Of a DNA stretch of 64,000 nt, positions 18,027 to 39,178 are shown one piece after another (within the stretch, counting starts at the first letter, position 1; every line of letters starts with the position of its first letter). Both the position numbers and the translations under genes were made by a program. The notes under the pieces are model-generated. The model did no database searches and had not been told where the DNA came from. It was given only the letters and a program-made list of their open reading frames with translations. Source of the DNA: an uncultured Micavibrio sp. (GTDB taxonomy: Bacteria; Pseudomonadota; Alphaproteobacteria; Micavibrionales; UBA2020); contig CAZKBS010000001.1 in NCBI GenBank assembly GCA_964551435.1, positions 219,222 to 283,221 on the forward strand, given 5' to 3'.

Positions 18027-18302
18027 ATGACCCGCCGCAAAAAAACCGCCGCGCCGAAAAAGCCGCGCAAATCCGCCGCGCGCCGCGGCGACCCGCGCCG
18101 CGCGATTAACGCGCGCGCTTTGATCGATGCGCTGGAACAGCATGTACTGGGTACGAAAAAAATGACGGCGACGCAGGTGAACGCCGCGCTGGCGCTGCTT
18201 AAAAAAATTCTGCCGGATTTGCCCGCGCAAGCCGTTGCACCGGACAGCGCCGACAAAAAAGCCGCGCCGCCGCATGAAGACGCCCTGCGCGCGCTTGAAT
18301 AA
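18027..18302 (+). CDS. Putative terminase small subunit / GTA g1-position protein
   Basis: 91 aa from ATG 18027. Basic N-terminus MTRRKKTAAPKKPRKSAARR, then ALIDALEQHVLGTKKMTATQVNAALALLKKILPDL. Assigned by position immediately upstream of the large terminase. Confidence 0.45.
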   Translation: MTRRKKTAAPKKPRKSAARRGDPRRAINARALIDALEQHVLGTKKMTATQVNAALALLKKILPDLPAQAVAPDSADKKAAPPHEDALRALE

Positions 18303-18305
18303 CCC

Positions 18306-19754
18306 ATGACAGAGATAACAGAACGCGAACGCCGCATCCGCGCGCGGCTGATGACGGATTTTGCGCATTACGCGGCAAAATGCCTGAAAGTCCGCGCCAA
18401 GGGCGGGCGCATTGTGCCGCTGAAACTCAACAGCGCACAGAAATATATTCATGAACGGCTGGAAGAACAGCTTGTCACCACCGGTCGCGTGCGCGCCCTG
18501 ATTTTAAAAGGCCGCCAGCAGGGCTGTTCGACCTATGTGCAGGCGCGGTTTTACTGGAAGGTGACGCACCGCCGCGGCGTACGCGCCTTTATTCTGACGC
18601 ATCTTGAAGATGCCTCGCGCGCCATACACGCGATGGTGCAGCGGTTTTACGAGAACTGCCCCGAAGCCGTGCGTCCGCTGGCAACGCGGCGATCCTCGCG
18701 CGAGCTGGTTTTCGGCAGGCTCGATTCCGGCTATGCCGTCGGCACGGCGAAATCTTCGGGTGTCGGGCGGGCGCATACGCTGCAATATTTTCATGGCTCC
18801 GAAGTCGCTTACTGGGCGCAGGCGGAACAGCACGTCGCCGGCGCGCTGCAGGCGGTGCCGGACGAAAAAGGCACCGAGATTATTCTTGAAAGCACATCGG
18901 CGGGTGCCGCGGGACTTTTTTACCAGATGTGCATGGATGCGCAAAAAGGGCGCGGTGGATATGCATTCATTTTCGTACCCTGGTTCTGGCAGGACGAATA
19001 CCGCAAAGATCCGCCGCCCGATTTCACGCTGAGCGCGGAGGAGGCCAGCTATCAGGCCGCCTACGGCCTTGACGACGCGCAGATGTACTGGCGGCAGGTA
19101 AAAATGGAAGAACTGGGCGGTATCTGGACATTCCGCCGCGAATATCCGTCAAGCGCCGAGGAAGCTTTTCACAGCGACCGCCCCAATGCGCTGTGGGACC
19201 GCGCGGGTATCGACCGCTGCCGCCGCCACCCGCAGGACGCGCCCGACATGAAACGCATCGTCATCGCCGTCGACCCCGCCGTAACATCGGGCCGCCATAG
19301 CGATGAAACGGGGATTATTGTGGCGGGCCTCGGTACCGACAACCGCGGATATATCATCGCCGATTTGTCGGGCCGGATGACCCCTGCCGAATGGGCGTCC
19401 TGCGTTATCAGCGCCTATTATAAATATCAGGCCGACCGCGTGGTCGCCGAAGTCAATCAGGGCGGCGATCTGGTCGAACATACGCTGCGCAGTTTTGACA
19501 GCGCCATCGCCTATAAATCCGTGCATGCCAGCCGCGGCAAAATGGCGCGGGCGGAACCGATTGCGGCGCTGGATGCCCGCGGGCTGGTGCATCACCTTGG
19601 CGCCTTTCCGGCGCTGGAAGACCAGATGTGCCGGTTTGACCCGCTGCAGGATGCCAAAAGCCCCGACCGCGTGGATGCGCGCGTCTGGGCGCTCAGCGAG
19701 CTGATGCTGGCGCCGCGCAAAGACCCGCGCCCGATGATCTGGCAGCCGGATTGA
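18306..19754 (+). CDS. terL: Phage terminase large subunit
   Basis: 482 aa. ATPase motif ALILKGRQQGCSTYV. C-terminal nuclease-like IVIAVDPAVTSGRHSDETGIIVAGL and VVAEVNQGGDLV. Located upstream of the portal gene. Confidence 0.85.
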   Translation: MTEITERERRIRARLMTDFAHYAAKCLKVRAKGGRIVPLKLNSAQKYIHERLEEQLVTTGRVRALILKGRQQGCSTYVQARFYWKVTHRRGVRAFILTHLEDASRAIHAMVQRFYENCPEAVRPLATRRSSRELVFGRLDSGYAVGTAKSSGVGRAHTLQYFHGSEVAYWAQAEQHVAGALQAVPDEKGTEIILESTSAGAAGLFYQMCMDAQKGRGGYAFIFVPWFWQDEYRKDPPPDFTLSAEEASYQAAYGLDDAQMYWRQVKMEELGGIWTFRREYPSSAEEAFHSDRPNALWDRAGIDRCRRHPQDAPDMKRIVIAVDPAVTSGRHSDETGIIVAGLGTDNRGYIIADLSGRMTPAEWASCVISAYYKYQADRVVAEVNQGGDLVEHTLRSFDSAIAYKSVHASRGKMARAEPIAALDARGLVHHLGAFPALEDQMCRFDPLQDAKSPDRVDARVWALSELMLAPRKDPRPMIWQPD

Positions 19755-19802
19755 AGAAAATTTCACAACTGCCGACATATTGACACAAGCCGGAGTATCC
19801 GC

Positions 19803-38171: not shown

Positions 38172-38648
38172 ATGAATCATTTTTTCATGCCACGGGGTAT
38201 TCGCAACAATAACCCCGGCAATATCCGCCTGTCTCCCACGCGCTGGCAGGGACAAAAAGACGTGCAGCTGGATACGTCATTTGTCGAATTTACAGCGCCT
38301 GTCTGGGGCCTGCGCGCGATGATGCGGCTTTTGCTGACGTATCACGTCAAATACGGGCTGGACACAGTCGAAAGCATCATCAACCGCTGGGCGCCGCCGC
38401 ACGAGAACGCGACGGATCATTATATTTACAGCGTCGCCCGGCATATCAAAAAGTCACGTCGCGACAGGCTGGACATGTTCGACCCCGCCTTGATGATTGC
38501 GCTGTGCGAAGCCATCACGCGGCACGAAAACGGCGCCCCGCCCGCAGGGGAGCCGCCGTTCTGGTACACACCAGCGCTTTATGCCGAGGCAGCGGCGATG
38601 CTGCCGCAAATATCAACCCCTACCCCTGACAGAAAGGCGAGAACATGA
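38172..38648 (+). CDS. Putative endolysin / peptidoglycan hydrolase (family often annotated as structural protein P5)
   Basis: 158 aa. N-terminal PRGIRNNNPGNIR motif and INRWAPPHENATDHY, as I recall from this phage muramidase-like family. Followed by membrane proteins. Confidence 0.6.
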   Translation: MNHFFMPRGIRNNNPGNIRLSPTRWQGQKDVQLDTSFVEFTAPVWGLRAMMRLLLTYHVKYGLDTVESIINRWAPPHENATDHYIYSVARHIKKSRRDRLDMFDPALMIALCEAITRHENGAPPAGEPPFWYTPALYAEAAAMLPQISTPTPDRKART

Positions 38649-38857
38649 AAAAGTTTCTGGATTTCCTGCTGGCGCGCGCGCGTGAAAGATCGACATGGCT
38701 GGGGCTGGTATCGGTGGCGACGGCGCTTGGGATTGTGCTGAGCGAATTTCAGATTGAGGCGGTGATTGCCGCAGGCATGTCGCTGGCCGGGGTCATTACC
38801 GCCTTCACCGGCGATGACAAAGACGGCGGCAATACCGGCGGCGGGGCACCGGCATGA
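38645..38857 (+). CDS. Holin candidate (two TM helices)
   Basis: 70 aa. STWLGLVSVATALGIVL and AVIAAGMSLAGVITAF. Start and stop overlap the neighbouring genes. Confidence 0.5.
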   Translation: MKKFLDFLLARARERSTWLGLVSVATALGIVLSEFQIEAVIAAGMSLAGVITAFTGDDKDGGNTGGGAPA

Positions 38858-39057
38858 GCGGCTGGATAGCCGTGCTGGCGATTGCCCTGCTGGTCGGGGC
38901 ACTCGGCGCCGCCGCGTGGCGCGGCGGGGCGGCATCCGAAAGGCAAAAGCGCACGGAGGAAAACAGCCATGACAGTTTTAAAGCGCATGCTGTGCGCGAT
39001 CGTCTGCGGCATGATGATGATTTTGCAAAGCGGGTGCGCGCACGTTTCACCCGCTAG
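38854..39057 (+). CDS. Membrane-anchored protein, i-spanin candidate
   Basis: 67 aa. N-terminal TM WIAVLAIALLVGALGAAAW, then a charged helical region. Confidence 0.4.
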   Translation: MSGWIAVLAIALLVGALGAAAWRGGAASERQKRTEENSHDSFKAHAVRDRLRHDDDFAKRVRARFTR

Positions 39058-39178
39058 TTTTTGCGCGCTTTATATCCCCGTCTATACAAGTGCGGAGGAC
39101 AGCACGGAGACGCGTGCGCAGGCAGATAGCAACAACGCCGTCTGGCTCGCGCTTTGCACGCGCGAGGGAGCAGATTAA
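38969..39178 (+). CDS. Lipoprotein, o-spanin candidate, overlapping the previous gene out of frame
   Basis: 69 aa from ATG 38969 (GGAGGA RBS). Signal MTVLKRMLCAIVCGMMMILQSGC, an imperfect lipobox. Mature part FCALYIPVYTSAEDSTETRAQADSNNAVWLALC resembles Rz1-like proteins of alphaproteobacterial phages. Confidence 0.5.
   Translation: MTVLKRMLCAIVCGMMMILQSGCAHVSPASFCALYIPVYTSAEDSTETRAQADSNNAVWLALCTREGAD

Follow-up and report, generated by a model that had tools for sequence, protein, structure and literature searches.

Do phage head, tail and lysis genes that lie between arrays of ankyrin-repeat (ANK) genes in a bacterial chromosome represent a resident virus, the remains of one or a device that the bacterium has made its own? 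The question is raised by a 64,000-nt stretch of DNA (here called the window) from an uncultured Micavibrio sp. (assembly GCA_964551435.1, contig CAZKBS010000001.1, positions 219,222–283,221 of the forward strand), in which a head-tail-lysis cluster occupies positions 18027–39178, approximately 21 kb. A preliminary description of this DNA, made without database searches, had proposed either a domesticated particle-producing locus co-opted by a symbiont or a decayed prophage that had delivered part of the ANK repertoire. We consider that the cluster is probably (at a probability of about 0.62) an anciently domesticated siphovirus head-tail-lysis locus, a 'viriform' resembling a gene-transfer agent (GTA), that is vertically inherited at a fixed chromosomal site. 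This reading is based on its gene content, the lack of mobility and replication genes, conservation, synteny, purifying selection and co-divergence with the host. Such a locus would be expected to produce particles, to package DNA non-specifically and to transfer it to recipients.

Gene identities were assigned by profile searches with Pfam, PHROG and NCBIfam, and structural relatives by comparison with solved (PDB) proteins. Transmembrane (TM) segments, signal peptides and the lipobox were read from hydropathy and sequence features of the window proteins. The ratio of nonsynonymous to synonymous substitution (dN/dS) and dS itself were computed against the nearest relatives, L009 and L091. The limits first proposed for the cluster hold: its first base is the ATG of a 91-aa open reading frame (ORF) located 5′ of the large terminase (TerL) gene, and position 39178 ends the stop codon of the last small gene. 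The coding set covers head, neck, tail, tip and lysis functions, none of the approximately 25 structural and lysis genes is broken in the window, and the ATGA-type start/stop overlaps noted earlier number eight when checked on the sequence. The genes are as follows.

18027..18302, plus strand: small-terminase (TerS) position; 91 aa, with a basic disordered N-terminus followed by helices.
18306..19754, plus strand: TerL (Terminase_6C, phrog_979/38; dN/dS 0.07; intact in 45 of 46 loci).
19803..21011, plus strand: portal, HK97-type (Phage_portal, TIGR01537); best solved relative Rcc01684 of RcGTA, the GTA of Rhodobacter capsulatus (E = 1.5e-97).
21008..21352, plus strand: TAC_11-like protein, 114 aa, at the RcGTA g3.5 position (PF11836, E = 6e-9); kept in many loci.
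21349..23202, plus strand: PTR-repeat protein, 617 aa, with 66-nt repeats D1/D2 (PF12789, SO2946-like_C).
23462..23830, plus strand: conserved 122-aa protein (conserved by tblastn in the near subclade; dN/dS 0.31).
23830..24537, plus strand: prohead protease S78 (PF04586, TIGR01543).
24575..25864, plus strand: major capsid protein (MCP), HK97 fold (PF05065, TIGR01554; RcGTA Rcc01687, E = 2e-83).
26027..26476, plus strand: 149-aa head-associated protein (phrog_5707), kept in all loci.
26580..27221, plus strand: head-tail adaptor, gp6/gp8-type connector (PF05135, TIGR02215; RcGTA Rcc01688, E = 5e-6).
27218..27559, plus strand: head completion or stopper protein (PF05521, phrog_25).
27600..28025, plus strand: 141-aa protein with three TM segments predicted from hydropathy (28–63% identity by tblastn in many loci).
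28056..28904, minus strand: secreted Sel1-repeat protein (PF08238; signal peptide; dN/dS 0.18).
29084..29503, plus strand: tail terminator, DUF3168/gp17-like (PF11367, phrog_176), matching SPP1 gp17.
29536..29958, plus strand: tail tube, Phage_tail_2 (PF06199; RcGTA tube Rcc01691, E = 4e-15).
29955..30311, plus strand: tail-chaperone position, 118 aa, conserved (TAC_11; PF11836 below the cut-off).
30338..30559, plus strand: tail-chaperone position, 73 aa, conserved.
30529..31002, plus strand: tape-measure position, 157 aa, placed by position (no family match in Pfam or PHROG).
31020..32311, plus strand: three minor tail/tip genes of 125 aa (phrog_384), 157 aa (DUF1833, 31394–31867) and 90 aa.
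32407..32856, plus strand: NlpC/P60 tail peptidase of the lambda gpK/RcGTA g14 type (PF00877).
32853..36896, plus strand: tip protein, 1347 aa, gpI+gpJ-like fusion (Lambda_tail_I, FNIII-A_GpJ, Phage-tail_3, NF040662, phrog_31).
36908..37906, plus strand: putative fibre, 332 aa, assigned by position (332–440 aa in relatives; no family match).
37920..39178, plus strand: lysis cassette of four genes, opening with a 75-aa protein with one TM segment (dN/dS 0.02–0.23).
38172..38648, plus strand: endolysin (phrog_873; PDB endolysin 7q47).
Between the endolysin and the last gene, plus strand: 70-aa protein with two TM segments.
38969..39178, plus strand: small cysteine-containing protein with signal-peptide and lipobox features.

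Family matches thus confirm the set from terminase to lysis that the preliminary description had listed, except that the tape measure, fibre, holin and spanin match no family. That inventory had passed over the three-TM gene and the Sel1-repeat gene, as well as the 617-aa PTR-repeat gene and a second TAC_11-like gene between portal and protease, and the cluster is not fully co-oriented as claimed, since the Sel1-repeat gene lies inside it on the minus strand. The protein at the TerS position is kept in nearly all loci at 40–70% identity by tblastn; Pfam and PHROG gave no match to it and no helix-turn-helix (HTH) is detectable. An exhaustive search finds its family to be small throughout (59–144 aa), and the AlphaFold2 model of the 91-aa protein is of low confidence. 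The 617-aa PTR-repeat protein, possibly a head or tail fibre, is restricted to the near subclade, i.e. the loci with a TerL identity of at least 71%. In relatives of the tape-measure candidate 95–157 residues align and proteins of 122–159 aa are called. The 73-aa ORF sits in the −1 frame relative to the 118-aa chaperone, and gene callers assign it a separate ATG; a programmed −1 frameshift joining the pair was rejected, the sole U-rich slippery run falling 3′ of the chaperone stop codon.

Domain searches detected no integrase, excisionase, repressor, replication or DNA-modification domain anywhere in the 64-kb window, which also contains no tRNA gene, and an Rfam scan of the whole window gave no match. 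Phage early genes are absent from the 17 kb upstream and the 25 kb downstream of the cluster within the window, and no att-like direct repeats surround it; the repeats found are those internal to the PTR gene and chance GC-rich matches. The absence of these functions, of tRNA genes and of direct repeats, first asserted for the cluster, therefore extends across the window. Nor do integrase, att or replication functions turn up just beyond the flanks: in the relatives examined there are no mobility, replication or lysogeny genes within 10 kb of either cluster end. Judged by gene content, the locus has no replication, integration/excision or lysogeny-control functions and is not self-transmissible, as is expected of a GTA. 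An intact temperate siphovirus prophage would carry an integrase with att sites, a repressor or antirepressor and a replication module beside its structural genes, a combination that is missing here.

The window was matched to a 93-kb contig assembled from run SRR12997672. TerL has thousands of homologues, the nearest 120 of which are 59–94% identical and of uniform length. Three contigs (OZ337366.1, 2.64 Mb; a 590-kb ENA scaffold; a 143-kb contig), with TerL 71, 80 and 85% identical, respectively, match the window gene for gene, from the ANK array through the two secreted proteins and a minus-strand ANK gene to the cluster with its minus-strand Sel1-repeat gene. For a lineage survey, one genome per GTDB species was scanned for TerL, followed by tblastn of the cluster proteins. 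Approximately 35 species-level metagenome-assembled genomes (MAGs), labelled Micavibrio sp., 'Bdellovibrionales', Rhodospirillaceae UBA8982 or plain Alphaproteobacteria, carry the cluster, with TerL 58–93% identical. They retain, in the same order, TerS, TerL, portal, protease, capsid, the 149-aa protein, adaptor, head-completion protein, membrane protein and Sel1-repeat protein, followed by terminator, tube, short tape-measure candidate, tip genes and NlpC/P60 peptidase. TerL matches below approximately 57% identity (planctomycetes, myxobacteria and Rhizobiales) have TerL alone in common with the window.

The surroundings are conserved along with the cluster. Most members, down to a TerL identity of approximately 61%, preserve synteny in the upstream flank, and the right end is syntenic in four further contigs (L088–L091), one of them from a distant subclade, in the order gpJ, fibre, four lysis genes, two minus-strand ANK genes, small genes, TetR gene and more ANK genes. 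In two genomes checked directly, gyrB is located 16–18 kb beyond the right end of the cluster, compared with approximately 16 kb in the window. Relative to the window, GyrB in these genomes is 82–83% identical, capsid 81–82%, portal 68–69% and TerL 62%; MCP identity across the clade is 58–93%. Since MCP identity equals that of GyrB in the two genomes, the capsid evolves as slowly as a core housekeeping enzyme, and since the GyrB of named Rhodospirillales-type outgroups is 66–69% identical to that of the window, the clade is roughly family-to-order deep.

The comparison of synteny and dN/dS across relatives proposed in the preliminary description finds the same neighbourhood kept and a dN/dS of 0.02–0.38 for every cluster gene, small ones included. 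Cluster dS (0.14–0.9) falls in the same range as that of the flanking TetR and ANK genes. Because dS is like that of the flanks and dN/dS is low, the cluster is as old as its surroundings and constrained. When integrity was scored as a single high-scoring segment pair, genes were whole in 45 of 46 loci for TerL, 43 of 44 for portal, 35 of 36 for capsid, and all of the 33 and 32 loci for adaptor and terminator, respectively. Flank synteny, dN/dS and the tracking of GyrB by MCP together indicate vertical inheritance under purifying selection, the further hallmark of a GTA.

Related loci provide contrasts. In a sister subclade (TerL 59–68%; L062, L016 and L037) the cluster and its Sel1-repeat gene are kept, with no ANK array and no integrase, and the genes directly upstream are sdhCDAB and a GNAT gene, uvrA/priA or an ECF sigma gene. 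The ANK arrays thus adjoin the cluster in one subclade and are not cargo that it carries. One MAG that carries the conserved cluster also contains a second, divergent one (L039; DAOMYX010000039.1; TerL 59% and capsid 58% identical). Upstream of its terminase, at 1–10000, lie a RelA/SpoT-like gene, a CI-like repressor (HTH_3+S24), RusA and other phage early genes, and the conserved cluster has host genes exactly where L039 has the repressor and RusA. Unless the bin is mixed, L039 appears to represent a real prophage of the ancestral kind. The idea that the 91-aa protein is a truncated TerS that has lost its HTH, as in RcGTA g1, was dropped, as BLASTP against the 159-aa TerS of L039 recovered the C-terminal PHEDAL motif only. 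A comparison with 50,697 phage records gave no close relative of the cluster, cultured phages reaching at most 40–53% identity in the capsid and 46%, over a partial alignment, in TerL. In IMG/VR an MCP of at least 68% identity occurs only in four fragments of the same cluster, all else being at or below 50%.

In virtually all members of the cluster family, the minus-strand Sel1-repeat gene and the plus-strand three-TM gene have a fixed place that separates the head-completion gene from the tail-terminator gene. The Sel1-repeat gene (36–88% identity) holds this position in nearly all loci that span the stretch, and no other eukaryote-like gene accompanies the cluster throughout. The prophage relative L039 has no such pair, a 140-aa gene occupying the spot. 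Possibilities for the role of the pair are control, immunity or host interaction.

The 459 bp that precede the first cluster gene contain three conserved elements, identified by aligning the region between the minus-strand ANK gene and TerS from 9–12 orthologous loci and by comparing the hairpin in eight orthologues.

17611–17639, minus strand: predicted sigma-70-type promoter (TTGACA-17-TACGAT) serving the divergent ANK gene; the motif TATATATGTAAATGTCAAA is kept here even in distant relatives.
17865..17925, plus strand: nearly invariant non-coding block of approximately 60 nt with the palindrome TTTGGCCAAA, from the orthologue alignment.
17973..18000, plus strand: GC-rich terminator-like hairpin with a T-run, approximately 30 nt 5′ of the first gene and approximately 50 nt past the TTTGGCCAAA block.

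The TTTGGCCAAA block is a candidate promoter/operator of the cluster. The hairpin and T-run, overlooked by a simple terminator scan owing to the loop size, occur at the same position in all eight orthologues with differing stem and loop sequences. By analogy with lambdoid late operons and the Caulobacter GTA, the layout suggests promoter-proximal termination that needs to be overcome, so that antitermination-type or attenuation control of the cluster is possible.

These features allow a mode of action to be proposed. A host-controlled signal would switch on the conserved promoter block, and transcription would read through the terminator-like hairpin. RcGTA-related HK97-type capsids would then be built, with very short tails set by the 157-aa tape-measure candidate and a lambda-like J tip. 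The small-terminase candidate and TerL would load the heads with any available DNA, after which the endolysin and membrane-protein cassette would lyse the producer, releasing particles that could not propagate the locus.

Several points weigh against the GTA-like reading. The locus is known from its genes alone, so that every functional claim is drawn from sequence, and the fibre, holin, spanin and tape-measure genes are candidates placed by position and TM or lipobox features. It carries its own lysis genes and a full-size lambda-type tip, unlike RcGTA, and a recently grounded prophage would look alike. As the TerS-like family is small everywhere, the small size of this protein is no signature specific to GTAs. 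The G+C content and GC3 of the cluster exceed those of the housekeeping genes in the window, but this does not discriminate, as the ANK arrays show the same elevation. Finally, in the closest relative, L091 (ERR12717849 contig 871, 4762–8730), the gpJ frame is broken by an 82-bp deletion and a 2-bp insertion, L043 has no portal and L018 has a split protease. These lesions may be true lineage-specific losses or assembly errors; as losses in single lineages, they imply that the function of the locus is dispensable in some lineages. RcGTA-like clusters are likewise not indispensable in every lineage.

The same lesions, with the missing mobility and replication modules, could be taken to mark a defective prophage that decays slowly, spared by weak deletion pressure or by the usefulness of the Sel1-repeat or neighbouring ANK genes. 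We regard this as improbable. Broken structural genes in close relatives, which the preliminary description saw as the mark of plain decay, are met with in a single lineage in the form of the L091 gpJ, where the surrounding genes are intact and gpJ itself is whole in L088–L090; core genes are otherwise nearly all intact. The approximately 25 structural and lysis genes are unbroken in the window and in most of the approximately 35 species, dN/dS lies well below 1 in all genes and MCP is conserved like GyrB across 17–18% GyrB divergence, over which neutral decay would have erased ORFs. The proposal of a decayed prophage that delivered ANK genes is not supported, on these grounds and because the cluster co-diverges with its flanks and the sister subclade has no ANK arrays. 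Good support for the alternative proposal, domestication of a locus that produces particles, comes from its conservation, synteny and purifying selection over approximately 35 genomes. It is very improbable, and already largely refuted, that the cluster belongs to a temperate phage that is still active, or to a phage family that integrates at a fixed site, with early genes beyond the inspected flanks and ANK genes as cargo in the manner of phage WO. ANK genes do abut both cluster ends in the window and most relatives, and the locus has its own lysis cassette; yet early genes and att repeats are missing, the orthologous flanks co-diverge with the cluster at a conserved distance from gyrB, in other members the cluster has no ANK array next to it and adjoins sdhCDAB, uvrA/priA or an ECF sigma gene, and the phage collections hold no close relative beyond fragments of the cluster itself.

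The conservation and selection data would equally fit a domesticated functional particle put to another use, such as bacteriocin-like killing, lysis for the release of effectors or action on a eukaryotic host. Dot/Icm genes and ANK arrays adjoin the locus, a secreted Sel1-repeat protein and a membrane protein are fixed within it and repurposing has been raised for the GTA clusters of endosymbionts (George et al., 2022; PMC9254644). We nevertheless think this unlikely, though it deserves some weight: Pfam scans of the structural genes gave no effector-like or toxin domain, and because conservation is among the strongest in TerL, portal and the TerS-position protein (dN/dS 0.07–0.29), DNA packaging appears to be still under selection. 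A bolder form of the GTA-like reading, which we offer as a doubtful speculation, holds that the cluster forms a GTA lineage of its own, which either arose when an RcGTA-related phage with a lambda-type tip was domesticated independently or branched off very early, and which has been fixed throughout the history of an order-level protist-associated clade. Its particles could preferentially package and exchange the surrounding host-interaction arrays, as in BaGTA, and the Sel1-repeat and membrane-protein pair would be a new control or immunity component.

The remainder of the window, with a G+C content of approximately 60% overall, provides the setting of the cluster.

606–2138, minus strand: two adjacent paralogues of DotI/IcmL, an inner-membrane component of the type IVB (Dot/Icm) system (PF11393, E = 3e-85).
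2583–3641: putative metallopeptidase (DUF6782), with the DotI/IcmL genes on one side and the first ANK gene on the other; overlapped by a long antisense ORF (2535–3635).
3575–15546: array of eight ANK-repeat genes, approximately 12 kb.
15605–16796: two small secreted proteins of 167 and 220 aa (families F2 and F1).
16797–17567, minus strand: ANK gene to the left of the cluster.
39175–39783, minus strand: ANK gene to the right of the cluster.
39175–51169: approximately ten ANK or weakly ANK-like genes and a TetR gene.
51000–64000: thymidine kinase, CYTH protein, gyrB, recF, dnaN, N-formylglutamate amidohydrolase and rodA/ftsW, in this order downstream of the ANK/TetR block.

ANK genes thus stand at both ends of the cluster, the right-hand one overlapping the last stop codon by 4 nt (39175–39178), as first described. 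The 167- and 220-aa secreted proteins are syntenic just upstream of the cluster across most of the clade, including some members with no minus-strand ANK gene, and may belong functionally to the locus. At 47416–51169 on the minus strand, three large genes (353, 427 and 426 aa) give faint ANK matches only; they and the neighbouring ANK genes have a common C-terminal pattern of basic 'F/RLxxRRK'-like tails, and they may be diverged members of the same effector family. The ANK array beside the DotI/IcmL genes looks like an effector arsenal. With Dot/Icm genes and dozens of ANK genes, many of them in large arrays, the lineage looks equipped for life with protists and is probably protist-associated. 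The G+C content is 0.55–0.57 in the housekeeping region (51000–64000) and 0.60–0.64 in the ANK arrays and cluster. The cumulative GC skew has its minimum at approximately 58–60 kb, which hints at a nearby replication origin; if so, transcription of the cluster and of the ANK array upstream would run towards it.

If the GTA-like reading is true, a complete cluster kept intact at one site in an order-level lineage would change the picture of large GTA clusters confined to one alphaproteobacterial clade, with nothing more than small or head-only remnants expected in deep-branching or eukaryote-associated lineages. It would widen the host range and the architectural range of GTA-like elements and would provide a second, independent case of phage domestication, in which the tip is of lambda type, the lysis genes lie in cis and a host-type Sel1-repeat gene is fixed inside the cluster. 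The locus offers a test bed for the exchange of effector genes by particles among symbionts, with the L039 prophage and its early genes, in a MAG of the same clade, as a natural control. A literature search found no description of this lineage's cluster, an absence that is no proof of novelty.

Among known systems, the locus compares most closely with RcGTA (rcc01682–rcc01698). Portal, capsid, adaptor and tube have their nearest solved structures in Rcc01684, Rcc01687, Rcc01688 and Rcc01691, so that homologues of g3, g5, g6 and g9 are present; roughly half of the aligned capsid residues are identical to Rcc01687 over the mature domain, as read off the alignment by eye. At the family level g4, g7/g8, g10 and g14 also have counterparts (S78, Phage_HCP/DUF3168, TAC_11 and NlpC/P60), and the Phage-tail_3 domain, a small protein at the TerS position, a very short tape measure and a G+C content above that of local housekeeping genes are common to both. 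The RcGTA tape measure has 216 aa and its tube five discs (PMC7296036), so the 157-aa candidate implies an even shorter tail. The tip differs: Pfam and NCBIfam searches did not find the g12 (DUF2460), g13 (DUF2163/BR0599) and g15 GTA TIM-barrel families, whose place is taken by the phrog_384 and DUF1833 proteins and the gpI+gpJ-type protein with Phage-tail_3, and the locus thereby falls outside the RcGTA large-cluster family as judged by its predicted tip genes. The NCBIfam GTA models TIGR02216/7/8 and the TP901 tube model have no match in the cluster. Lysis and fibre genes lie within the cluster and not elsewhere in the genome as in RcGTA, the internal minus-strand Sel1-repeat gene and the membrane-protein gene are peculiar to it and it measures 21 kb against approximately 15 kb. 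The preliminary description of a mosaic, with an RcGTA-like stretch from connector to tape measure and a tip of another origin, is right about the lambda-like tip without g12 and g13 and too narrow in its RcGTA-like part, which includes portal and capsid. The order of the tip genes is that of lambda (gpM-L-K-I-J), with a K-like NlpC/P60 peptidase, a gpI domain and gpJ FNIII and central fibre domains; here, however, gpI and gpJ form a single fusion protein, the phrog_384 and DUF1833 proteins stand at the M and L positions and similarity to lambda J itself is weak (E ≈ 4e-3).

As a complete temperate phage, phage WO of Wolbachia possesses a recombinase and att sites. It and the 'ankyphages' of sponge symbionts resemble the locus in having ANK genes directly beside phage structural genes in a eukaryote-associated bacterium. 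The present locus, in contrast, lacks a recombinase and is flanked by orthologous chromosomal DNA, and in the sister subclade it has no ANK neighbours, so that eukaryote-like genes do not travel inside prophage boundaries as in WO. BaGTA of Bartonella, linked to run-off replication, is likewise a domesticated particle locus of a host-associated alphaproteobacterium, surrounded by many host-interaction genes. The resemblance is one of position only, the present locus lying between ANK arrays approximately 16 kb from gyrB-recF-dnaN, and no replication origin of phage descent was identified in the window. With the RcGTA-like GTAs of Rhodobacterales, Rhizobiales, Caulobacterales and Sphingomonadales it has in common the lack of replication and lysogeny genes, vertical inheritance and purifying selection. 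Large RcGTA-like clusters have been reported only from the Rhizobiales–Caulobacterales–Rhodobacterales–Parvularculales–Sphingomonadales clade, outside which the present host lineage falls, and only small ones from Micavibrio, Rhodospirillales and Rickettsiales (PMC5721377; PMC10883770). In deep-branching Alphaproteobacteria associated with eukaryotes, the GTA clusters of endosymbionts also keep RcGTA-related head genes under purifying selection. Most of these clusters are head-only or scattered, and their tail genes have been lost or have become pseudogenes (PMC9254644), whereas here the head-tail-tip-lysis set is contiguous and intact in a host genome of approximately 2.6–3.3 Mb as opposed to a highly reduced one. 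Because large clusters are reported only elsewhere and those of endosymbionts are mostly head-only, we treat the locus as GTA-like and related to RcGTA in head, neck and tube, and as a candidate GTA-like viriform outside the known RcGTA host range.

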